A stretch of DNA of 13,451 nt from a virus. Taxonomy: Duplodnaviria > Heunggongvirae > Uroviricota > Caudoviricetes. Numbering within the stretch: position 1 is the first letter of the stretch; each line of letters opens with the position of its first letter. The notes under the pieces were generated by a model. That model saw only the letters and a list, made by a program, of their open reading frames with translations. It was not told where the DNA came from and made no database searches. Of the stretch, positions 2,843-13,451 are shown piece after piece. The translations under genes and the position numbers were made by a program. Location: IMG/VR virus record IMGVR_UViG_2695420471_000009. One strand, given 5' to 3'.

Positions 2843-3223
2843 ATGACCGAGCGCATAGAATTTGTTTTACCTTACCCGCCGACGGTGAACACTTACTGGC
2901 GTCGTCGTGGCAGCACATATTTTGTATCAAAAGCCGGGGAGCGTTATCGCCGGGCAGTGGCGCTTATTGTTCGCCAGCAGCGGCTGAAATTAAGCCTGTC
3001 CGGAAGGTTGGCAATAAAAATTATTGCAGAACCACCGGATAAGCGCCGCCGTGACCTGGACAATATTCTGAAAGCGCCGCTGGATGCGCTGACGCATGCG
3101 GGGTTGCTAATGGACGATGAGCAGTTTGATGAAATCAATATCGTTCGTGCTCAGCCAGTATCTGGTGGACGTCTGGGGGTGAAGATTTATCCCATAATGC
3201 TTGAAGGGCAGGTCAAAAAATGA
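2843..3223 (+). CDS. rusA: RusA-family Holliday junction resolvase (copy 1)
   Basis: 126 aa with LPYPPTVNTYWRRR and DKRRRDLDN (acidic catalytic cluster) motifs typical of RusA. Stop overlaps the next start (ATGA). Confidence 0.9.
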   Translation: MTERIEFVLPYPPTVNTYWRRRGSTYFVSKAGERYRRAVALIVRQQRLKLSLSGRLAIKIIAEPPDKRRRDLDNILKAPLDALTHAGLLMDDEQFDEINIVRAQPVSGGRLGVKIYPIMLEGQVKK

Positions 3224-3330: not shown

Positions 3331-4236
3331 CTATATTTCCAGACATCTGTTATCACTTAACCCATTACAAGCCCGCTGCCGCAGATATTCCCGTGGCGAG
3401 CGATAACCCAGCGCACTATGCGGATGCCATTCGTTATAATGCTCGAACGCCTCTGCAAGGTTCTTTGCTGCCGTTAACCCGTCTGGTTTGGGCATGATAC
3501 TGATGTAGTCACGCTTTATCGTTTTCACGAAGCTCTCTGCTATTCCGTTACTCTCCGGACTCCGCACCGCCGTGTTCTTCGGTTCAAGTCCCAACATCCG
3601 GGCGAACTGGCGTGTTTCATTAGCCCGGTAGCATGAACCATTATCCGTCAGCCACTCCACTGGAGACGACGGAAGATCGTTGCCGAAGCGGCGTTCCACC
3701 GCTCCCAGCATGACGTCCTGTACTGTTTCACTGTTGAAGCCGCCGGTAGTCACCGCCCAGTGCAGTGCCTCACGATCACAGCAGTCCAGCGCGAACGTGA
3801 CACGCAGTCTCTCTCCGTTATCACAGCAGAACTCGAACCCGTCAGAGCACCATCGCTGATTGCTTTCTTTCACGGCCACTCTGCCTGTATGTGCCCGTTT
3901 CGATGGCGGTACAGCAGGTTTTCGCTCAAGCAACAGCGCATTCTGGCGCATGATCCGGTAAACACGTTTGGCATTGATCGCAGGCATACCATCAAGTTCT
4001 GCCTGTCTGCGAAGCAGCGCCCATACCCGACGATAACCATACGTGGGCAGCTCTCCGATAACATGGTGTATACGGAGAAGCACATCCGTATCATCAGTGT
4101 GACGACTGCGGCGGCCATCCATCCAGTCATCGGTTCGTCTGAGAATGACGTGCAACTGCGCACGCGACACCCGGAGACAACGGCTGACTAAGCTTACTCC
4201 CCATCCCCGGGCAATAAGGGCGCGTGCGCTATCCAC
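3331..4236 (-). CDS. insD: IS2 transposase OrfB (InsD), DDE catalytic domain
   Basis: 301-codon frame with GTG start, overlapping insC in the -1 frame. Sequence is typical of IS3-family OrfB. Confidence 0.85.
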
Positions 4237-4559
4237 TTTTTTGCCCGTCCATATTCAACGGCTTCTTTGAGGAGTTCATTTTCCATCGTTTTCTTGCCGA
4301 GCAGGCGCTGGAGTTCTTTAATCTGCTTCATGGCGGCAGCAAGTTCAGAGGCAGGAACAACCTGTTCTCCGGCGGCGACAGCAGTAAGACTTCCTTCCTG
4401 GTATTGCTTACGCCAGAGAAATAACTGGCTGGCTGCTACACCATGTTGCCGGGCAACGAGGGAGACCGTCATCCCCGGTTCAAAGCTCTGCTGAACAATT
4501 GCGATCTTTTCCTGTGTGGTACGCCGTCTGCGTTTCTCCGGCCCTAAGACATCAATCAT
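4194..4559 (-). CDS. insC: IS2 OrfA (InsC), HTH DNA-binding/regulatory protein
   Basis: 121 aa starting [18 protein letters not shown] at the ATG at 4559 on the minus strand (track ORF extends upstream to 4604). Helix-turn-helix and leucine-zipper-like segment. Confidence 0.85.
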
Positions 4560-4770
4560 CTGTACTCCAATGACTAGTCTAAAAACTAGTATTAAGACTA
4601 TCACTTATTTAAGTGATACTGGTTGTCTGGAGATTCAGGGGGCCAGTCTACGGACATTTTCTGCCTGTGGACCAGGAAAGTGCACGGGTGCTTTCCACTC
4701 CCATGAAGCCCGGCAATCCGCGCAGATACAGTAATAAACGAACTGACAGCAGTAAGATGGAGCGTTTCTT

Positions 4771-5028: not shown

Positions 5029-5402
5029 TGCGCCATGAGTTTATTTTACCTTATCCGCCGACGGTGAATACTTACTGGCGACGTCGTGACAACACATATT
5101 TTGTATCAAAAGCCGGTGAGCGTTATCGCCGGGATGTGGCGCTTATTGTCCGTCAGCAGCGACTGAAATTAAGCCTGTCCGGAAGACTGGCGATAAAGAT
5201 TATTGCAGAGCCACCGGATAAGCGCCGTCGTGACCTGGACAATATCCTGAAAGCACCACTGGATGCACTGACACATGCGGGAGTGTTAATGGACGATGAG
5301 CAGTTTGATGAAATCAATATCGTTCGTGCTCAGCCAGTATCTGGTGGACGTCTGGGGGTGAAGATTTACCCCATAATGCATGAAGAGCAGGTCAAAAAAT
5401 GA
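5028..5402 (+). CDS. rusA: RusA-family Holliday junction resolvase (copy 2, distinct allele)
   Basis: 124 aa, about 90% identical to copy 1, with differences at the N-terminus and C-terminus (HEEQ versus LEGQ). Confidence 0.85.
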   Translation: MRHEFILPYPPTVNTYWRRRDNTYFVSKAGERYRRDVALIVRQQRLKLSLSGRLAIKIIAEPPDKRRRDLDNILKAPLDALTHAGVLMDDEQFDEINIVRAQPVSGGRLGVKIYPIMHEEQVKK

Positions 5403-6218
5403 AACTGGAAGATTTACCGAAATACTACTCCCCAAAATCCCCTTGCCTGACCGATGCATCGGCCTCAACGTCAAAAGATGCGCTGAGTATCACTGATGTG
5501 ATGGCCGCGCAGGGCATGACACAGAATCGGGCTGAGATGGGGGTTTCTGCGTTCCTTGGGAAAATGGGCATTAGTATGAATGACAGAGAGCGGGCAACAG
5601 AATTGCTGACAGAATATGCACTCAGTCGGTGTGATCGCGTGGCGGCGTTAAGAAAACTCCCGGCAGAAATAAAACCGGCAGTGATGCGTATTATGGCTTC
5701 GTATGCGTTTGAAGATTATGCCCGTAGCGCGGCGAGCAAAAAACAGTGCCCCTGCTGTCACGGAAAAAAATTTATTGAAAGCGAGGTTTTTACAAACAAG
5801 ATCCAGTATCCGGATGGTAAGCCGCCGGTATGGGCAAAGTGTACGAAAGGTGTGTATCCGTCTTACTGGGAAGAATGGAAAAAAGTCAGGGAGGTGGTAA
5901 AAGTTGCCTGTCCGGAGTGTGGCGGAAAGGGTGAGGTTTCCACCGCCTGTAAGGATTGCCGTGGGCGTGGTGTCGCCATTCATCGTGAAGAGTCGGTAAA
6001 ACGTGGTATGCCTGTTATCAGAGACTGCCAGCGTTGTGGTGGTCGTGGCTATGAAAGACTACCATCAACGGAGGCATTTAATGCTATATGCGAGGTGACA
6101 AACCAGATAACACGCGCGTCATGGGAAAAAACAGTTAAGAAATTCTATGATGCGCTGGTGACTCGGTTTGATATTGAAGAAGCATGGGCTGAGCGGCAGT
6201 TAAAAAAGGTAACTAGGT
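5399..6218 (+). CDS. Q-like late antiterminator candidate (copy 2); 3' end runs into an N junction
   Basis: Same protein as 6526..7347 with several substitutions. At N 6219 the frame continues into rusA internal sequence, which creates the 376-aa track ORF. This is a join artefact or recombination point, not a natural fusion. Confidence 0.55.
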
Positions 6219-6219
6219 N

Positions 6220-6529
6220 CACATATTTTGTATCAAAAGCCGGTGAGCGTTATCGCCGGGATGTGGCGCTTATTGTCCGTCAGCAGCGACTGAAATTAAG
6301 CCTGTCCGGAAGACTGGCGATAAAGATTATTGCAGAGCCACCGGATAAGCGCCGTCGTGACCTGGACAATATCCTGAAAGCACCACTGGATGCACTGACA
6401 CATGCGGGAGTGTTAATGGACGATGAGCAGTTTGATGAAATCAATATCGTTCGTGGTCAGCCAGTATCTGGTGGACGTCTGGGGGTGAAGATTTACCCCA
6501 TAATGCATGAAGAGCAGGTCAAAAAATGA
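6220..6529 (+). pseudogene. RusA 3' fragment (copy 3), beginning at the N junction
   Basis: Encodes RusA residues from TYFVSKAGERY to the C-terminus. No start codon or 5' part is present. Confidence 0.6.
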
Positions 6530-7347
6530 AACTGGAAGATTTACCGAAATACTACTCCCCAAAATCCCCTTGCCTGACCGATGCATCGGCCTCAACGTCA
6601 AAAGATGCGCTGAGTATCACTGATGTGATGGCCGCGCAGGGCATGACACAGAATCGGGCTGAGATGGGGTTTTCTGCGTTCCTGGGGAAAATGGGCATCA
6701 GTATGAATGACAGGGCGCGGGCAACAGAATTACTGGCAGATTATGCACTCAGTCGGTGCGATCGTGTGGCGGCGTTGAGAAAACTTCCGGCAGAAATAAA
6801 ACCGGTAGTGATGCGCATTATGGCTTCGTACGCTTTTGAGGATTATGCCCGCAGCGCAGCGAGTAAAAAGCAGTGCCCTTGTTGCTATGGGGAAAAATTT
6901 ATTGAAAGCGTAGTTTTTACAAACAAGGTCCAGTATCCGGATGGTAAGCCGCCGGTATGGGCAAAGTGTACGAAAGGTGTGTATCCGTCTTACTGGGAAG
7001 AATGGAAAAAAGTCAGGGAGGTGGTAAAAGTTGCCTGTCCGGAGTGTGGCGGAAAGGGTGAGGTTTCCACCGCCTGTAAGGATTGCCGTGGGCGTGGTGT
7101 CGCCATTCATCGTGAAGAGTCGGTAAAACGTGGTATGCCTGTTATCAGAGACTGCCAGCGTTGTGGTGGTCGTGGCTATGAAAGACTACCATCAACGGAG
7201 GCATTTAATGCTATATGCGAGGTGACAAACCAGATAACACGCGCGTCATGGGAAAAAACAGTTAAGAAATTCTATGATGCGCTGGTGACTCGGTTTGATA
7301 TTGAAGAAGCATGGGCTGAGCGGCAGTTAAAAAAGGTAACTAGGTAA
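6526..7347 (+). CDS. Q-like late-gene antiterminator candidate (273 aa) with four DnaJ-type CxxCxGxG zinc-finger repeats
   Basis: Lies after rusA and immediately upstream of a lambda-type pR' promoter, pause element and tR' terminator. Repeats CPCCYGEK, CPECGGKG, CKDCRGRG, CQRCGGRG. Q assignment is by position and context, not by recognised homology. Confidence 0.65.
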   Translation: MKLEDLPKYYSPKSPCLTDASASTSKDALSITDVMAAQGMTQNRAEMGFSAFLGKMGISMNDRARATELLADYALSRCDRVAALRKLPAEIKPVVMRIMASYAFEDYARSAASKKQCPCCYGEKFIESVVFTNKVQYPDGKPPVWAKCTKGVYPSYWEEWKKVREVVKVACPECGGKGEVSTACKDCRGRGVAIHREESVKRGMPVIRDCQRCGGRGYERLPSTEAFNAICEVTNQITRASWEKTVKKFYDALVTRFDIEEAWAERQLKKVTR

Positions 7348-7352
7348 CAAGG

Positions 7353-7380
7353 TTGATTTTTCCGGAATCTGTGGTAAATT
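7353..7380 (+). promoter_or_regulatory. Late promoter pR'-like (TTGATT, 16-nt spacer, TAAATT) with downstream AACGAT pause element at 7387-7392
   Basis: Resembles lambda pR', which has a GGTAAATT -10 region and an AACGAT sigma70-dependent pause element in the initial transcribed region. Lies 6 nt after the Q-like stop. Confidence 0.6.
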
Positions 7381-7386
7381 CGTCAT

Positions 7387-7452
7387 AACGATGGGCGTTT
7401 TATGCCTGACGTTAGAAGAGTTTCTACAACCCGCCGCCGAGCGGGTTTTTTA
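7387..7452 (+). ncRNA. Short pR'-to-tR' terminated transcript (lambda 6S-like / StxS-like candidate)
   Basis: Inferred from promoter and terminator positions only. The start coordinate is a guess. Confidence 0.35.
7429..7452 (+). terminator. tR'-like intrinsic terminator
   Basis: Stem CCCGC / GCGGG with loop CGCCGA, followed by TTTTTTAT. Confidence 0.65.
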
Positions 7453-7571
7453 TGACTGAAATCGCGTCAGTACAGTAAACGCGCTGGTGGCGGTGAATAC
7501 CTGTCTTTCAGCTTGCTGGCTTTTTCGACAAGAGTTATTGGTGTGTCACGTTAACCGGAAAAGGAAAAGAC

Positions 7572-7769
7572 ATGCTAAAACAGCAGGATATGACAGAAAC
7601 CGCCAGAGTGGTGTTTAATGAATTAAGCGTTACCGAACCGGCGACAGTCGGGGAGATAGCGCAGAATACTTACCTTTCACGCGAACGCTGCCAGTTAATA
7701 CTGACCCAGCTGGTTATGGCGGGTCTGGCAGACTATCAGTTCGGTTGTTACAGACGCCTTCCGCAGTGA
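7572..7769 (+). CDS. Hypothetical 65-aa protein, possible small winged-helix/HTH
   Basis: Good RBS (AAGGAAAAG, 4-nt spacer, ATG). Stop lies within a terminator hairpin. No family recognised. Confidence 0.5.
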   Translation: MLKQQDMTETARVVFNELSVTEPATVGEIAQNTYLSRERCQLILTQLVMAGLADYQFGCYRRLPQ

Positions 7770-7780
7770 AGGCTTTTTTA
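7756..7780 (+). terminator. Intrinsic terminator overlapping the stop of the 65-aa ORF
   Basis: Stem GCCTTC / GAAGGC with loop CGCAGT, followed by TTTTTTATTT. Confidence 0.5.
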
Positions 7781-7796
7781 TTTGTGGTAAATGGGC

Positions 7797-7827
7797 GGCT
7801 GGTGGGTGTTAGGGGCACCCACCAGCC
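7797..7827. repeat. Perfect 12-bp inverted repeat (GGCTGGTGGGTG / CACCCACCAGCC) with 7-nt loop, upstream of the methyltransferase
   Basis: Seen directly; no T-run follows, so it is not a classic terminator. The second repeat copy begins inside this loop, right after the N run. Confidence 0.5.
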
Positions 7828-7919
7828 ATCTGCTCATGCGTTGGGTTCACAAGCAAACCTCAGGCCCACTGCTTTGCGCAAAAGCAGAATGAGCCTATCA
7901 GAGACAGGCTTAATGATCC

Positions 7920-8978
7920 ATGCTTAATACTGTAAAAATATCCAGTTGTGAGTTAATCAACGCCGACTGCCTGGAATTTATCCGGTCGTTACCCGAAAAT
8001 TCTGTTGACCTGATAGTCACGGACCCGCCGTACTTTAAAGTGAAGCCTGAGGGCTGGGATAACCAGTGGAAGGGCGACGATGATTACCTGAAGTGGCTGG
8101 ACCAGTGTCTGGCGCAGTTCTGGCGGGTGCTGAAACCTGCCGGAAGTCTTTACCTGTTCTGTGGTCATCGCCTGGCATCTGATATCGAAATCATGATGCG
8201 TGAACGCTTCAGTGTGCTGAACCATATTATCTGGGCGAAGCCGTCCGGACGCTGGAACGGATGCAACAAGGAAAGCCTGCGGGCGTATTTCCCCGCCACA
8301 GAGCGCATTCTGTTCGCGGAACATTATCAGGGGCCGTATCGTCCGAAAGATGCCGGGTATGCGGCGAAGGGCAGTGCACTGAAACAGCATGTGATGGCCC
8401 CGCTGATTTCTTACTTTCGTGATGCGCGAGCTGCCCTGGGGATAACGGCAAAACAGATTGCAGATGCCACAGGAAAGAAAAACATGGTGTCGCACTGGTT
8501 CAGTGCCGGTCAGTGGCAGTTGCCGAATGAAAGCGATTATCTGAAATTACAGGCGCTGTTTGCCCGGGTGGCAGAAGAGAAGCATCGGCGTGGTGAACTG
8601 GAAAAGCTCCACCACCAGCTGGTGGATACGTATACCTCACTGAACCGGCAGTATGCGGAGCTGCTGAGTGAATATAAACATCTGCGGCGGTATTTTGGCG
8701 TGACGGTGCAGGTGCCGTATACCGATGTGTGGACGCATAAACCGGTGCAGTTCTATCCCGGGAAACATCCGTGCGAAAAACCGGCAGAAATGCTGCAGCA
8801 GATAATCAGCGCTAGCAGTCGTCCGGGTGACCTGATTGCAGATTTTTTCATGGGGTTGGGTTCGACAGTGAAAGCGGCACTGGCGCTCGGGCGTCGTGCA
8901 ATTGGCGTTGAGCTGGAGACTGAACGTTTTGAGCAGACGGTTCGGGAAGTACAGGATTTAGTCAGCCAGAACGGATGA
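7920..8978 (+). CDS. DNA methyltransferase, beta-class N6-adenine/N4-cytosine type (copy 1)
   Basis: DPPY catalytic motif (TDPPYF) near the N-terminus and AdoMet motif FxGxGS (DFFMGLGST) near the C-terminus. This motif order defines the beta class. No restriction endonuclease gene is adjacent. Confidence 0.85.
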   Translation: MLNTVKISSCELINADCLEFIRSLPENSVDLIVTDPPYFKVKPEGWDNQWKGDDDYLKWLDQCLAQFWRVLKPAGSLYLFCGHRLASDIEIMMRERFSVLNHIIWAKPSGRWNGCNKESLRAYFPATERILFAEHYQGPYRPKDAGYAAKGSALKQHVMAPLISYFRDARAALGITAKQIADATGKKNMVSHWFSAGQWQLPNESDYLKLQALFARVAEEKHRRGELEKLHHQLVDTYTSLNRQYAELLSEYKHLRRYFGVTVQVPYTDVWTHKPVQFYPGKHPCEKPAEMLQQIISASSRPGDLIADFFMGLGSTVKAALALGRRAIGVELETERFEQTVREVQDLVSQNG

Positions 8979-9018
8979 TATTGAAGAATTAATTACGCGT
9001 CGTTATTATGCGGCTCCC

Positions 9019-9094
9019 GGCCCTTTAGCTCAGTGGTGAGAGCGAGCGACTCATAATCGCCAGGTCGCTGGTTCAAATCCAGCAAGGGCCACCA
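9019..9094 (+). tRNA. ileZ: tRNA with CAU anticodon (Met or lysidine-Ile2), ileZ-like
   Basis: Cloverleaf: acceptor GGCCCTT / AAGGGCC, D-arm GCTC...GAGC, anticodon loop CTCATAA, T-arm GCTGG TTCAAAT CCAGC, then A-CCA. Confidence 0.8.
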
Positions 9095-9101
9095 TCACAT
9101 A

Positions 9102-9178
9102 CCGCCATTAGCTCATCAGGAAAGAGCGCCAGCCTTCGAAGCTGGCTGCGCGGGGTTCAAGTCCCCGATGGCGGTCCA
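9102..9178 (+). tRNA. argN: tRNA-Arg (anticodon UCG), argN-like
   Basis: Acceptor CCGCCAT / ATGGCGG, anticodon arm CCAGC CTTCGAA GCTGG, T-arm CGGGG TTCAAGT CCCCG, then CCA. Confidence 0.75.
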
Positions 9179-9191
9179 TTATCTGCATCAT

Positions 9192-9268
9192 GCGTTGTTA
9201 GCTCAGCCGGACAGAGCAATTGCCTTCTAAGCAATCGGTCACTGGTTCGAATCCAGTACAACGCGCCA
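9192..9268 (+). tRNA. argO: tRNA-Arg (anticodon UCU), argO-like
   Basis: Acceptor GCGTTGT / ACAACGC, anticodon arm ATTGC CTTCTAA GCAAT, T-arm ACTGG TTCGAAT CCAGT, then G-CCA. Confidence 0.8.
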
Positions 9269-9282
9269 CACTTATTTTCCCT

Positions 9283-9308
9283 GGCTCGCTTTTGCGGGCC
9301 TTTTTTTT
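9283..9308 (+). terminator. Intrinsic terminator after the tRNA triplet
   Basis: Stem GGCTCGC / GCGGGCC (one G-U pair) with loop TTTT, followed by eight T. Confidence 0.6.
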
Positions 9309-9314
9309 AAATGT

Positions 9315-9527
9315 CTCACAATTCAGACGGTTGACAGTTGTCTGTTTTGCGGGGAGTTTGTTAAAAGAAACTGGCATGGTGAATCCCCCTGTGCGGAGGG
9401 GCAATCAGCGAGTAGGTATATGGGATAATCGCGGATTCAGGTGCTGGTACTGAATTCACCGGGAGGCACCCGGCATCATGCAATGGCACATAGCGCCACT
9501 CTCCAGCCCTCTCCGGAGGGGCTTTTC
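9315..9527 (+). repeat. Conserved ~215-bp GC-rich structured element downstream of tRNAs (copy A)
   Basis: Three copies in the window, with TTGACA near the 5' end and a GC hairpin plus T-rich tail at the 3' end. Copy A has a weaker 3' hairpin and is followed by the N junction at 9546. Confidence 0.5.
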
Positions 9528-9546
9528 TGTGCCGGATACATCACAG

Positions 9547-9607
9547 TTTCTGGAANCGGTTTGATATTGAAGAAGCATGGGCTGAGCGGCAGTTAAAAAA
9601 GGTAACT
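9547..9607 (+). pseudogene. 3' fragment of a third-allele Q-like gene, beginning at the N junction
   Basis: Encodes ...FDIEEAWAERQLKKVTR. A 7-bp deletion relative to 7341-7350 removes the TAA stop. Confidence 0.5.
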
Positions 9608-9610
9608 AGG

Positions 9611-9638
9611 TTGATTTTTCCGGAATCTGTGGTAAATT
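9611..9638 (+). promoter_or_regulatory. pR'-like late promoter (second copy), pause element variant AACTAT
   Basis: TTGATT, 16-nt spacer, TAAATT. Pause hexamer at 9645-9650 reads AACTAT instead of AACGAT. Confidence 0.55.
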
Positions 9639-9686
9639 CGTCATAACTATGGGCGTTTTATGCCTGACGTTAGAAGAGTTTCTACA

Positions 9687-9710
9687 ACCCGCCGCCGAGC
9701 GGGTTTTTTA
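9687..9710 (+). terminator. tR'-like terminator (second copy)
   Basis: Same CCCGC / GCGGG hairpin and T6 tract as at 7429. Confidence 0.6.
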
Positions 9711-9748
9711 TTGCGGAATTAATTACGGACCGTTATTATTCTGCTCCC

Positions 9749-9824
9749 GGCCCTTTAGCTCAGTGGTGAGAGCGAGCGACTCATAATCGCCAGGTCGCTG
9801 GTTCAAATCCAGCAAGGGCCACCA
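9749..9824 (+). tRNA. ileZ: tRNA with CAU anticodon (ileZ-like), copy 2
   Basis: Identical to 9019..9094. Here it sits directly after tR' with no 65-aa ORF or methyltransferase in between, as in Stx-type phages. Confidence 0.8.
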
Positions 9825-9831
9825 TCACAAA

Positions 9832-9911
9832 CCGCCATTAGCTTATCAGGAAGAGCAGACGACACGATAACAGGGTTGTTGGTGCGGGGGCGGGTCCCCG
9901 ATGGCGGTCCA
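9832..9911 (+). pseudogene. Degenerate argN-like tRNA (anticodon arm replaced, non-canonical T-loop)
   Basis: Acceptor and D-arm match tRNA-Arg(UCG), but the region between D-arm and T-stem is unrelated and the T-loop lacks TTCRA. Confidence 0.5.
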
Positions 9912-9924
9912 TTATCGGTATTCA

Positions 9925-10001
9925 GCGTTGTTAGCTCAGCCGGACAGAGCAATTGCCTTCTAAGCAATCGGTCACTGGTTCGAATCCAGTACAGCGCGCC
10001 A
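9925..10001 (+). tRNA. argO: tRNA-Arg (anticodon UCU), argO-like, variant with G-U pair in acceptor stem
   Basis: Same as 9192..9268 except the 3' acceptor strand reads ACAGCGC (A to G change gives a T-G wobble). Confidence 0.7.
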
Positions 10002-10111
10002 TATTCATTCTTCCAGATTCCTTCCGGCAGAGCCTTATACTGAAATATACCTGGCTCAGGATATTGTTGAAAATATTTTATGTTTGTCAAAAATAAAAGT
10101 TCTGTTAAGTA

Positions 10112-10465
10112 TTGATTGAGTGTTTGTTATACGGTCTAATGGTTTTTTCAGCATTAAATATTTATCATTCATATGGTGTGGGTAGAGTGAATATTGATGA
10201 GGCGTCGGGGTGTTTCATCCTTAGGCAGCGTATTGATATAGTCAATGCAGCACGAGCAAAGGCCTTCAGCCGTTTGACAGTTTTGTTCTGTACTCCTGAT
10301 CGTCTTTCGGGAAGAGACGTTATTATTCTGAATAGTGATGCTATACAGAGGGTTTGCGATGAGTTCATGGTTGCTAATTCAGAATTATTTGCTCTTGTTC
10401 AGGAGTACAACAGAATAGCCAGGACCTGTGGTATGGATGAACTTCGGATTACTCATCTGGGGTAG
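10112..10465 (+). CDS. Hypothetical protein in the variable insert downstream of argO (start uncertain)
   Basis: Track ORF starts at TTG; first ATG is 10139 with no clear SD. Lies in a unique 650-bp segment absent from the other two tRNA-downstream copies. No family recognised. Confidence 0.3.
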   Translation: MIECLLYGLMVFSALNIYHSYGVGRVNIDEASGCFILRQRIDIVNAARAKAFSRLTVLFCTPDRLSGRDVIILNSDAIQRVCDEFMVANSELFALVQEYNRIARTCGMDELRITHLG

Positions 10466-10668
10466 ATACATATCTGGATTATCACCTGTTACGGTAAAAA
10501 GTGATTGCTTACTGTTTTTGTGAATGGCATTGCAGCAGCCGGATAATGTCAGTGCTGGCTGACGGTGTGCTGGTGGCGGGTGTGGTGGTTGTTGCTTTCC
10601 CGTTGCTGAAAAAGAAAACGCCAGACTGTTAGCCGGGTATCAGTTAGCGGGAGAAATTTTTAAATACT

Positions 10669-10893
10669 TCACAATTCAGGCGGTTGACTGTTGTCTGGTT
10701 TGCGGGGAGTTTGTTAAAAGAAACTGGCATGGTGAATCCCCCTGTGCGGAGGGGCAATCAGCGAGTAGGTATATGGGATAATCGCGGATTCAGGTGCTGG
10801 TACTGAATTCACCGGGAGGCACCCGGCACCATGCAATGGCACATAGCGCCACTCTCCAGCCCCTCTCCGGAGGGGCTGTTTATATTGATTTTG
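10669..10893 (+). repeat. Conserved GC-rich structured element downstream of tRNAs (copy B, divergent)
   Basis: Homologous to 9315..9527 and 12450..12675 with scattered substitutions (TTGACT instead of TTGACA). Ends with a perfect 8-bp hairpin and T-rich tail. Confidence 0.5.
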
Positions 10894-10934
10894 TCAGATG
10901 TGAGTAAACTCCTTATGGACTAAAACAACAAAGT

Positions 10935-10944
10935 NNNNNNNNNN
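10935..10944. other. Assembly gap (10 N)
   Basis: Run of N. Both flanks end inside inverted-repeat hairpins. Confidence 0.95.
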
Positions 10945-11054
10945 TAGGGGCACCCACCAGCCATCTGCTCATGCGTTGGGTTCACAAGCAAACCTCAGGC
11001 CCACTGCTTTGCGCAAAAGCAGAATGAGCCTATCAGAGACAGGCTTAATGATCC

Positions 11055-12113
11055 ATGCTTAATACTGTAAAAATATCCAGTTGTGAGTTAATCAACGCCG
11101 ACTGCCTGGAATTTATCCGGTCGTTACCCGAAAATTCTGTTGACCTGATAGTCACGGACCCGCCGTACTTTAAAGTGAAGCCTGAGGGCTGGGATAACCA
11201 GTGGAAGGGCGACGATGATTACCTGAAGTGGCTGGACCAGTGTCTGGCGCAGTTCTGGCGGGTGCTGAAACCTGCCGGAAGTCTTTACCTGTTCTGTGGT
11301 CATCGCCTGGCATCTGATATCGAAATCATGATGCGTGAACGCTTCAGTGTGCTGAACCATATTATCTGGGCGAAGCCGTCCGGACGCTGGAACGGATGCA
11401 ACAAGGAAAGCCTGCGGGCGTATTTCCCCGCCACAGAGCGCATTCTGTTCGCGGAACATTATCAGGGGCCGTATCGTCCGAAAGATGCCGGGTATGCGGC
11501 GAAGGGCAGTGCACTGAAACAGCATGTGATGGCCCCGCTGATTTCTTACTTTCGTGATGCGCGAGCTGCCCTGGGGATAACGGCAAAACAGATTGCAGAT
11601 GCCACAGGAAAGAAAAACATGGTGTCGCACTGGTTCAGTGCCGGTCAGTGGCAGTTGCCGAATGAAAGCGATTATCTGAAATTACAGGCGCTGTTTGCCC
11701 GGGTGGCAGAAGAGAAGCATCGGCGTGGTGAACTGGAAAAGCTCCACCACCAGCTGGTGGATACGTATACCTCACTGAACCGGCAGTATGCGGAGCTGCT
11801 GAGTGAATATAAACATCTGCGGCGGTATTTTGGCGTGACGGTGCAGGTGCCGTATACCGATGTGTGGACGCATAAACCGGTGCAGTTCTATCCCGGGAAA
11901 CATCCGTGCGAAAAACCGGCAGAAATGCTGCAGCAGATAATCAGCGCTAGCAGTCGTCCGGGTGACCTGATTGCAGATTTTTTCATGGGGTTGGGTTCGA
12001 CAGTGAAAGCGGCACTGGCGCTCGGGCGTCGTGCAATTGGCGTTGAGCTGGAGACTGAACGTTTTGAGCAGACGGTTCGGGAAGTACAGGATTTAGTCAG
12101 CCAGAACGGATGA
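11055..12113 (+). CDS. DNA methyltransferase, beta-class (copy 2, identical to 7920..8978)
   Basis: Identical 352-aa translation. Part of a ~1.7-kb exact repeat (7810..9500 matches 10945..12635, offset 3135). Confidence 0.85.
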   Translation: MLNTVKISSCELINADCLEFIRSLPENSVDLIVTDPPYFKVKPEGWDNQWKGDDDYLKWLDQCLAQFWRVLKPAGSLYLFCGHRLASDIEIMMRERFSVLNHIIWAKPSGRWNGCNKESLRAYFPATERILFAEHYQGPYRPKDAGYAAKGSALKQHVMAPLISYFRDARAALGITAKQIADATGKKNMVSHWFSAGQWQLPNESDYLKLQALFARVAEEKHRRGELEKLHHQLVDTYTSLNRQYAELLSEYKHLRRYFGVTVQVPYTDVWTHKPVQFYPGKHPCEKPAEMLQQIISASSRPGDLIADFFMGLGSTVKAALALGRRAIGVELETERFEQTVREVQDLVSQNG

Positions 12114-12153
12114 TATTGAAGAATTAATTACGCGTCGTTATTATGCGGCTCCC

Positions 12154-12229
12154 GGCCCTTTAGCTCAGTGGTGAGAGCGAGCGACTCATAATCGCCAGGT
12201 CGCTGGTTCAAATCCAGCAAGGGCCACCA
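12154..12229 (+). tRNA. ileZ: tRNA with CAU anticodon (ileZ-like), copy 3
   Basis: Identical to 9019..9094. Confidence 0.8.
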
Positions 12230-12236
12230 TCACATA

Positions 12237-12313
12237 CCGCCATTAGCTCATCAGGAAAGAGCGCCAGCCTTCGAAGCTGGCTGCGCGGGGTTCAAGTCCC
12301 CGATGGCGGTCCA
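12237..12313 (+). tRNA. argN: tRNA-Arg (UCG), copy 3
   Basis: Identical to 9102..9178. Confidence 0.75.
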
Positions 12314-12326
12314 TTATCTGCATCAT

Positions 12327-12403
12327 GCGTTGTTAGCTCAGCCGGACAGAGCAATTGCCTTCTAAGCAATCGGTCACTGGTTCGAATCCAGTACAACGCG
12401 CCA
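12327..12403 (+). tRNA. argO: tRNA-Arg (UCU), copy 3
   Basis: Identical to 9192..9268. Confidence 0.8.
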
Positions 12404-12417
12404 CACTTATTTTCCCT

Positions 12418-12443
12418 GGCTCGCTTTTGCGGGCCTTTTTTTT
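12418..12443 (+). terminator. Intrinsic terminator after tRNA triplet (copy 3)
   Basis: Identical to 9283..9308. Confidence 0.6.
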
Positions 12444-12449
12444 AAATGT

Positions 12450-12675
12450 CTCACAATTCAGACGGTTGACAGTTGTCTGTTTTGCGGGGAGTTTGTTAAA
12501 AGAAACTGGCATGGTGAATCCCCCTGTGCGGAGGGGCAATCAGCGAGTAGGTATATGGGATAATCGCGGATTCAGGTGCTGGTACTGAATTCACCGGGAG
12601 GCACCCGGCACCATGCAATGGCACATAGCGCCACTCTCCAGCCCCTCTCCGGAGGGGCTGTTTATATTGATTTTG
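12450..12675 (+). repeat. Conserved GC-rich structured element downstream of tRNAs (copy C)
   Basis: TTGACA at 12466; 3' hairpin AGCCCCTC TCCG GAGGGGCT at 12640..12659 followed by a T-rich tail. Confidence 0.5.
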
Positions 12676-12691
12676 TCAGATGTGAGTAAAC

Positions 12692-12725
12692 TCCTTATGG
12701 ACTTTGTTGTTTTAGTCCATAAGGA
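12692..12725. repeat. Perfect 11-bp inverted repeat (TCCTTATGGAC / GTCCATAAGGA) with 12-nt loop
   Basis: Seen directly. Marks the boundary between the GC-rich element and the AT-rich island. Confidence 0.5.
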
Positions 12726-13030
12726 CATATTTGCAGAGTGCAACGGTTATTAAAGCATTCATTCAATACGTTATCTGTATTTGTAGGGCATTCCTGGCTA
12801 TTTTTGATTGAATTCCAGAATGTTTTATTGAATGGTACTACGTTGTAAATGGTTACAGGTAGCACTTTGTTATTGAGCATGATGCCTGTGTGAGTCAGTG
12901 TAAATATACTTTCAGGAGGTAAGAAAGCATCCGATTGATACCAGATTATTAATTTTATTTTACTCCATATGACTGAAAAAGATATTCCGCATGATGGCTG
13001 GATAACTGTATCAATCACAATCCACTTCAT
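12695..13030 (-). CDS. Hypothetical 111-aa protein on the reverse strand within an AT-rich island
   Basis: ATG at 13030 preceded by AAGGAA SD (5-nt spacer) and a TTTACA / TATACT promoter-like pair. A 111-codon open frame is unlikely by chance in DNA this AT-rich. No family recognised. Confidence 0.45.
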
Positions 13031-13290
13031 TTAGTTTCCTTGTTTATGCCTTGCTGGTGATGTTCTGAAAAGTATAAATGATATTTTTGAATGTAAACCA
13101 TAGAGCAGAATTATTTTTCTGATGTTGTTTATTGTTTATTTAAATGCAGGGTGGTTTATATCTCGTCTTGTAGTTTATCCATGCATATCTGCTTGATAAT
13201 CAGGTTTTTATTTAAGGTATGGTTTTGTGTTTTTTCTGTATTACATGTCAGGTATTTTAAAGAATTATTTTTCAGATGGTGGAAAGAACC

Positions 13291-13451
13291 ATGGCATTTA
13301 AACACTATGATGTTGTCAGGGCGGCGCCGCCGTCAGATCTTGCGGAAAAGCTGACACATAAACTGAAAGAGGGCTGGCAGCCGTTTGGTAGTCCGGTGGC
13401 CATAACCCCTTATACCCTGAGGTGTACTGGCAATAGCGGACACTACCATTT
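13291..13451 (+). CDS. Conserved prophage hypothetical protein, N-terminal part (continues beyond window)
   Basis: ATG at 13291; frame open to the window edge (MAFKHYDVVRAAPPSDLAEKLTHKLKEGWQPFGSPV...). GC content returns to the prophage-backbone level. Probably the first gene of the lysis-proximal late region. Confidence 0.55.
   Translation, partial: MAFKHYDVVRAAPPSDLAEKLTHKLKEGWQPFGSPVAITPYTLRCTGNSGHYH

Follow-up and report, generated by a model that had tools for sequence, protein, structure and literature searches.

Three copies of the prophage small RNA gene STnc100, with a covarying core and pseudoknot, in the late-regulation region of a lambdoid prophage

The DNA analysed here is a stretch of 13,451 nucleotides from a virus of the class Caudoviricetes (IMG/VR record IMGVR_UViG_2695420471_000009), and "the window" below always means this whole stretch. 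It is the late-regulation region of a lambdoid prophage. Its content includes hok/sok, DUF968, RusA, an IS3-family insertion, the Q gene (PF03589) and an N6/N4 DNA methylase gene, and its features are arranged in the order Q, the late promoter PR′ with its terminator tR′, the DNA methylase gene, a tRNA-Ile/tRNA-Arg/tRNA-Arg cluster with a terminator, a repeated structured element and a convergent iraM gene. This element, which is the gene for the small RNA (sRNA) STnc100 and the subject of this report, is present three times in the window (copies A, B and C from left to right; Table 1), and an earlier note, made from the sequence alone, had proposed it as a candidate prophage regulatory sRNA.

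A repeat search of the window delimits a direct-repeat unit of about 280 bp at 9291-9568, 10644-10921 and 12426-12703, and cmscan with Rfam 15 finds in each of the three, on the + strand, a full-length match (model positions 1-206 of 206) to family RF02076, STnc100, whose Rfam description is "Gammaproteobacterial sRNA". The scores are 123.6, 132.4 and 133.6 bits for copies A, B and C, respectively (E-values of about 1e-27 to 1e-30), where the gathering score of the family is 47 bits, and no second Rfam family overlaps the three copies even at E <= 1. Besides the score, the copies have the conserved secondary structure of the family, in which a closing helix surrounds the hairpins CCCC/GGGG and CCGGG/CCCGG and one variable hairpin, a 3′ intrinsic terminator and a prophage location at the moron site. 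We regard it as virtually certain that they are genes for the known prophage sRNA STnc100, which is EcOnc27 in E. coli O157:H7 strain Sakai and sRNA103 in strain EDL933 of the same serotype. The element is not new, since STnc100 is already catalogued in Rfam and has already been detected in pathogenic E. coli; the word candidate in the earlier note can therefore be dropped, and its proposal of a prophage regulatory sRNA is borne out by the full-length matches and by the published experiments on homologues (below).

The three copies described in the earlier note are those found by the repeat search and by Rfam, its coordinates taking in about 30 nt of extra 5′ flank. The copies are near-identical from about 30 nt before a TTGACA or TTGACT hexamer through the terminal hairpin, and the features that the note had listed are indeed present: the hexamers (TTGACA at 9331-9336 and 12466-12471, TTGACT at 10684-10689), the short GC stems CCCCU/AGGGG (helix P2) and CCGGG/CCCGG (helix P5), both of which are in the unconstrained minimum free energy (MFE) fold of copy C, and, after each copy, a terminator-like hairpin with a T-rich tail. 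Only three positions distinguish copy B from copy C. They all fall in the promoter region or 5′ flank and outside the helices, so the note's argument from structure that copy B retains in spite of its substitutions carries no weight. Copy A has a C-to-U change in the closing helix P1, which turns a G-C into a G-U pair, and a 1-nt deletion (one C) in the terminator stem, and its 3′ tail differs from those of B and C. A position after every tRNA triplet, also claimed in the note, holds for copies A and C, which begin about 50–75 nt past a tRNA-Arg with a strong terminator in between (for copy A the one in Table 1), but not for copy B, which lies about 700 nt past a degenerate two-tRNA cluster and is separated from it by a 117-aa open reading frame (ORF) and a DUF3927-type ORF.

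Table 1. Positions of the STnc100 copies, their parts and neighbouring features in the window.
Feature	Position	Strand	Basis or remark
STnc100 copy A	9345..9534	+	RF02076 match
STnc100 copy B	10698..10887	+	RF02076 match
STnc100 copy C	12480..12669	+	RF02076 match
Conserved 5′ flank and candidate promoter, copy A	9316..9373	+	Read from sequence
Structured core, copy A	9374..9481	+	Covariance model R1, covariation, MFE fold
P1, 8-bp closing helix, copy A	9374-9381 with 9474-9481		
P2, copy A	9386-9390 with 9397-9401		
Pseudoknot 5′ strand AUCAGCG	9404..9410	+	Pairs with 9442-9448
P4, copy A	9433-9440 with 9450-9457		
Pseudoknot 3′ strand UGCUGGU, inside P4 loop	9442..9448	+	Pairing tests
P5, copy A	9459-9463 with 9469-9473		
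Single-stranded linker and intrinsic terminator, copy A	9482..9529 (linker 9482-9504)	+	Terminator scan
Structured cores, copies B and C	10727-10834 and 12509-12616		
Q gene	6526-7347		PF03589
Late promoter PR′, pause and tR′, lambda-like	7353..7453	+	Read from sequence, terminator scan
tRNA-Ile2(CAU), tRNA-Arg(UCG), tRNA-Arg(UCU) and terminator (9283-9300 plus T8)	9019..9308	+	ARAGORN, Rfam, terminator scan
Degenerate tRNA cluster	9749-10001		Ile2(CAU) and Arg(UCU); degraded remnant at the Arg(UCG) place
Second complete tRNA triplet unit	12154-12443		
Convergent 111-aa ORF past copy C	12695..13030	-	RefSeq homologue annotated anti-adapter protein IraM

Each unit has, in this order, a promoter-like 5′ flank, a structured core of about 108 nt, a single-stranded linker of 23 nt and an intrinsic terminator. 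Folded without constraints, copy C has an MFE structure with P1, P2, P4, P5 and the terminator (−70 kcal/mol, z −2.4); the fold of copy A is poorer at the terminator. The near-identity of the copies means that there is no covariation evidence inside the window, so relatives were gathered from other genomes by scanning species-representative genomes for the invariant 17-mer CACCGGGAGGCACCCGG; chance matches of this 17-mer in Streptomyces and other GC-rich genomes were removed by requiring the 5′ block and P1 pairing. A MAFFT alignment of the diverse copies put P4 and the pseudoknot (below) out of register, and covariance models were built for that reason. Search with the core covariance model (R1), with which the cores in the window score 98.8–102.4 bits, gave 103 copies in 75 sources, and 100 distinct sequences, from many Enterobacterales, were used for the covariation measurements. 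Standard pairs are present in 90.0% of cells compared with 76.5% in shuffles (0 of 500 shuffles were as high), 22 of the 26 pairs have changes on both sides, and the covariation score is 0.396, compared with 0.156 in shuffled alignments and at most 0.086 with slid partners. Substitutions in the family thus preserve base pairs, and the element comes through the covariation check that the earlier note had proposed. P1 and P4 covary heavily and P2 and P5 are nearly invariant in sequence, and the loops and junctions GGUGAAUCC, GCGG (the P2 loop), the CGCG before P4 and CCGGGAGGCACCCGG are near-invariant as well. A helix P3 (GCGA/UCGC) in the MFE fold was rejected; it shares nucleotides with the pseudoknot strand, and at least some members, as judged by eye (for example that at locus L078), have no GCG partner for it.

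The strand that lies 3–5 nt past P2 is complementary to the P4 loop, and the two strands covary. The pseudoknot pairs are CAGC/GCUG in the window and CUGGUG/UACCAG at the same site in the copy beside stx2B in prophage Sp5 of strain Sakai (below), and other members have AAGCCA/UGGCUU, UUAACC/GGUUAA, AGGCUAC/GUAGCCU or GACUGAA/UUCAGUC. In a register-free test the longest helix that a strand can form with its own partner is on average 6.18 bp long, compared with 4.58 bp when partners are permuted (z 14.6, 0 of 10,000 permutations), and the energy version of the same test gives z −8.3. Pairing was also measured in a fixed-column alignment, where 57.8% of cells pair compared with 36.5% in shuffles and 6 of 6 pairs change on both sides; this alignment was fitted to the pseudoknot. 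Its low value (58%) is due to variation in the register and length of the helix, and the register-free test with permuted partners is the cleaner of the two. The pseudoknot helix is missing from the RF02076 consensus line printed by cmscan, and the STnc100/PasD preprint of the Storz laboratory (below), searched for the term, makes no mention of a pseudoknot.

The terminator hairpins of the three copies lie at 9505-9523 (A, followed by TTTT), 10857-10878 (B) and 12639-12660 (C). Those of B and C have 9 pairs (7 G-C) and a weak T tail (TGTTTATATTGATTTTG), and that of copy A has 6 pairs by scan count after the loss of one C but a better TTTT tail. At the other end of copy A, the TTGACA sits 17 nt before a weak −10, GAGTTT (9354-9359), and an overlapping candidate promoter has TTGTCT (9338-9343) 18 nt before an extended −10, TGT-TAAAAG (9359-9367); these features recur at +1353 in copy B and at +3135 in copy C. 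A recurring TTGAC-type −35 and a −10 box that ends 5–7 nt before P1 are found in other genera, which suggests that the RNA starts at or just before P1, and this start would give an RNA of about 150–160 nt in the window. A sigma-54 promoter (CTGGCATGGTGAATCC) was considered and rejected, as it has a TGGCA-type −24 but no −12 GC and is not conserved beyond E. coli and Salmonella.

Published work on homologues provides the experimental background to these features. Strain EDL933 has 11 STnc100 copies with RNA-seq reads at all of them, and STnc100_4 is Northern-positive (PMC5331693). Stx2 phages have an STnc100 copy 75 nt past stx2B; this copy has been detected in outer-membrane vesicles (PMC12370729) and overlaps the Hfq-bound EcOnc27 of Sakai, the sRNA103 of EDL933, overexpression of which raised fimZ and espA transcripts (PMC12711010, PMC7873438). 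A machine-learning study ranked single-nucleotide polymorphisms in this stx2-linked copy among its top predictors of haemolytic uraemic syndrome (PMC12711010). EcOnc27 has an Hfq peak in cross-linking and analysis of cDNA (CRAC), and Northern analysis gave species of about 235/247 nt, of which the 247-nt species was destabilised (PMC4104026 supplement). We find that the EcOnc27 Northern probe GGCCTTGGTATATGCCTAATCTCTGTATACTGCAT is the exact reverse complement of positions 4067-4101 of locus L123, the linker of the Sp5 STnc100 copy, which lies past stx2B with AsxR convergent just beyond it. With coordinates shifted by about 142 nt, an offset that we inferred from where AsxR lies, the Hfq CRAC peak of EcOnc27 falls in Sp5 on the 3′ strand of P1, on the linker and on the terminator. 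In eight Sakai prophages a conserved moron site with convergent sRNA pairs has been described past PR′ (Tree et al.; PMC4104026, PMC7873438), RpoD binding has been reported at Salmonella STnc100 promoters (PMC10794520), and PasD1 and PasD2 of enteropathogenic E. coli (EPEC) share ancestry with STnc100 according to the Storz laboratory (bioRxiv 10.64898/2026.05.13.724894).

In the late region of the lambdoid prophage, upstream of the esterase and lysis genes, STnc100 thus forms a "moron" unit complete in itself. How might such a unit act? In a lysogen it would be transcribed from its own sigma-70 promoter and would stop at its own terminator to give an RNA of about 150–200 nt, and Hfq would bind the linker, the terminator and the U tail. 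The RNA would then act in trans, with its variable single-stranded parts forming the base pairs, and the invariant pseudoknotted core could be a stabilising scaffold or a binding site for some partner. During lytic growth, Q-modified polymerase from PR′ would read through STnc100. Taken jointly, own-promoter transcription, Hfq binding, trans base pairing, a core that is a scaffold or partner site, and late read-through have in our estimation a slightly better than even chance of being correct. As an overall explanation of the repeated element, a known STnc100 sRNA unit that lies in a lambdoid prophage, with this mechanism as its proposed mode of action, is the best that we can offer, and we consider it highly probable.

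Several observations weigh against this reading. Neither candidate promoter passed a simple sigma-70 scan, and the TTGACA has only a weak −10 at its 17-nt spacing. The ~235/247-nt length of EcOnc27 exceeds the P1-to-terminator distance in Sp5 by 50–70 nt, so this RNA may either begin farther upstream or be cut from a longer precursor. Loops as strongly conserved as these, and a pseudoknot, would not be usual in an ordinary seed-pairing sRNA. In a crude scan about 45% (35 of 78) of the family members elsewhere have no adjacent terminator, a fraction that is approximate given the crudeness of terminator detection in these members (34 and 43 of 78), and several family members lie directly before ORFs. 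There are also ribosome footprints at some EDL933 copies, with a ribosome coverage value of up to 3.2 (PMC5331693).

The family is widespread. An STnc100 match is present in 2861 of 5426 complete E. coli genomes, at up to 13 places per genome, and copies were found in Salmonella, Enterobacter, Kosakonia, Pantoea, Erwinia, Superficieibacter, Klebsiella and other genera. Outside E. coli they often number 2–6 per locus and lie near tRNA, IsrI or IsrK genes, and a Pantoea plasmid (NZ_CP133292.1; locus L081, 944-1994) has six cores in 1.05 kb, some of them back to back with no terminator between. Further arrays of STnc100 cores in other genera are at L078 (6364-7007) and L074. A divergent subtype, in which P2 is GCGGCUnAGCGC and the closing helix is longer, is present upstream of yfdP in a prophage of E. 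coli ATCC 11775 (L122, 6003-6136), and in Klebsiella, Citrobacter and others; L003, L027, L028, L040 and L079 are loci that carry it. It scores 45.4 bits against RF02076 (the listed members score about 44–57 bits with the core model), just under the gathering score, and standard annotation therefore misses it. RefSeq annotation (PGAP) leaves STnc100 out altogether and has instead a spurious pseudo-coding sequence, a partial "hypothetical protein", on the opposite strand (L001, 9100-9225; L124, 5699-5824).

These contexts bear on an alternative in which the pseudoknotted core is itself the functional part, an aptamer-like or protein-binding domain that would either regulate in cis, as leader or attenuator, or be a ribonucleoprotein scaffold or decoy. 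The "sRNA" would then be only its terminated form and no classical seed-pairing regulator. Such a role would suit the near-invariant loops and junctions, the covarying pseudoknot, and the cores that have no terminator of their own, stand directly before ORFs or form the Pantoea plasmid arrays. The window, however, gives it little purchase: each copy is terminated and copy C faces a convergent gene, which leaves nothing to regulate in cis and also speaks against the 5′ untranslated region of a downstream gene, a reading that the earlier note had named as one that would refute its proposal. The ORFs that directly follow cores elsewhere belong to unrelated families (KdgM porin, DUF5983 and DUF1317 proteins), the downstream genes across the family share no common function, and Hfq binding and trans effects have been reported for EcOnc27 and PasD. 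We know of no ligand or protein partner of the core, and on balance we judge this alternative unlikely. A related idea, that STnc100 may be more than a seed-pairing Hfq sRNA, we put forward tentatively and consider doubtful; its core of about 110 nt is a multi-helix junction that is locked by a covarying pseudoknot and has near-invariant loops. In Enterobacterales mobile elements the core occurs in terminated sRNA genes, in back-to-back arrays near tRNA genes and in 5′ leaders, a distribution that would fit binding of a protein or small molecule or recognition by a processing enzyme.

It is also conceivable that STnc100 has no promoter of its own and is excised from the 3′ trailer of the tRNA operon, from an stx or late PR′ transcript, or from the 3′ untranslated region of an upstream gene. 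Its place in the late operon is invariably past tRNAs or stx, EcOnc27 is longer than the P1-to-terminator distance, the candidate promoters are weak by consensus, and P1 joins the 5′ and 3′ ends, as happens in RNAs that are cut from precursors. Against this, a strong terminator stands between the tRNAs and copies A and C, conserved sequence starts some 15 nt ahead of the TTGACA in copies whose upstream DNA differs, and other genera have recurring promoter-like −35/−10 pairs with a constant spacing to P1. RpoD binding is reported for the Salmonella copies (PMC10794520), and reads are present at all EDL933 copies in uninduced culture (PMC5331693). Excision from a longer transcript is thus distinctly improbable as the source of the RNA.

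A small protein as the product of STnc100 is very improbable. Short ORFs do overlap each copy, and the ribosome footprints at some EDL933 copies are accompanied by a Shine-Dalgarno-like "tatgggata" (PMC5331693); however, the overlapping ORFs differ from copy to copy (9441-9596, 10684-10806 and 12355-12588), and the 1-nt terminator indel of copy A shifts its frame relative to B and C; no ORF is conserved. In the family, the lengths of the variable region fall in all three modulo 3 classes (27, 21 and 30 sequences), ORF starts are scattered, substitutions preserve base pairs and not codons, and the EDL933 footprints are not backed by conservation. The chance that STnc100 is the short leader that runs from the Q-dependent promoter PR′ to tR′, in the manner of StxS or lambda 6S RNA, is next to negligible and we reject this identity: in spite of the promoter-like hexamer and terminator, the position between Q and the lysis genes and the precedent of StxS as such an sRNA (PMC7873438), the lambda-like PR′/pause/tR′ unit sits directly past Q, about 1.9 kb upstream of STnc100 (and again at 9606-9712), with the methylase gene, three tRNAs and another terminator in between.

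The PR′ unit itself begins directly past the Q stop codon and consists of TTGATT, a 16-nt spacer, TGg-TAAATT, a pause-like element AACGAT and a terminator at 7428-7447 plus T6; this tR′ terminator is common to the post-Q region of Sp5, and in the second PR′/tR′ copy the pause element is AACTAT. The unit predicts a leader of about 67 nt of the StxS/6S type. Complete E. coli genomes have the order Q, 65-aa ORF, methylase, tRNAs, STnc100, IraM (- strand), SASA esterase, holin and lysozyme, and the two-tRNA version of the tRNA cluster is also present in complete genomes. The 117-aa ORF before copy B and the iraM-like ORF have no Pfam match. Toward the left end of the window, the sok antitoxin RNA of the hok/sok type I locus lies at 881-1056 (Rfam RF01794, 112 bits), and an IS3-family transposase pair (HTH_Tnp_1 plus rve) lies at 3331-4604 on the - strand between the RusA and Q region copies.

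Is the presence of three copies within 3.4 kb a property of the prophage? Probably it is not, and the window is probably a scaffold of paralogous prophage pieces and not a tandem array, the element itself being real; we draw this conclusion because there are N positions between the copies (one at 9556 and a run over 10935-10944), the modules on either side recur with 96–100% identity, and complete genomes have one STnc100 copy per prophage module. The sequence past 9556 is the last ~60 nt of a Q gene, and that from 10945 onward is 100% identical to the sequence from 7810 onward. Farther upstream, RusA/Q pieces are repeated three times, which produces an odd Q-RusA "fusion" ORF (repeated modules that are 92–100% identical are at 2914-3213, 5093-5392 and 6220-6519, and also at 5399-6529). 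The contiguous triple arrangement of the window was not reproduced in any complete genome examined. The hairpins past copies B and C (10908-10934 and 12690-12727) have the same stem and a loop that is reverse-complemented (TTTGTTGTTTT versus AAAACAACAAA), right beside the N run, which could reflect a flip-flop inversion or an assembly artefact.

The element in the window is best labelled an STnc100/EcOnc27-type prophage sRNA, a member of a family that is abundant in pathogenic E. coli and adjoins stx2 in Stx2 phages. The covariation-backed structure, the pseudoknot and the reach of the family slightly below the Rfam threshold are handles for mutational work. We found no earlier record of the pseudoknot, the near-threshold relatives or the array and leader contexts, and these leave room for a more interesting role of the conserved core.

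How do the window copies compare with known systems? StxS and lambda 6S RNA are, like STnc100, short terminated transcripts of the lambdoid prophage late region, and StxS binds Hfq; unlike STnc100 they begin at PR′ directly past Q, and STnc100 is separate, unrelated and far more structured. The anti-sRNAs AsxR (RF02703) and AgvB (RF02702) share the moron locus, AsxR being the convergent neighbour of the Sp5 STnc100 copy, but they are 51–60 nt long, on the opposite strand and unrelated in sequence, and neither family has a match at E <= 1 in 7300-13451. PasD1 and PasD2 (EPEC E2348/69; Pearl Mizrahi et al. 2021; Zhu, Shabalina and Storz 2026) are Hfq-dependent sRNAs that prophages encode in the neighbourhood of Q and the esterase/holin genes, and they reportedly have an STnc100-like consensus structure, a likeness that we take from the published description (bioRxiv 10.64898/2026.05.13.724894); they reportedly differ in having other seeds and a sequence too divergent for BLAST. 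The closest comparison is with EcOnc27/sRNA103. In the window copies the variable region, the linker and the pseudoknot have other sequences than in the Sp5 copy. The window copies follow tRNAs and not stx2B, and they have no convergent partner of the AsxR/AgvB type, copy C facing iraM instead; they share with EcOnc27/sRNA103 the full-length model match, the helices, the terminator, the moron position past PR′ and the multicopy occurrence in E. coli.

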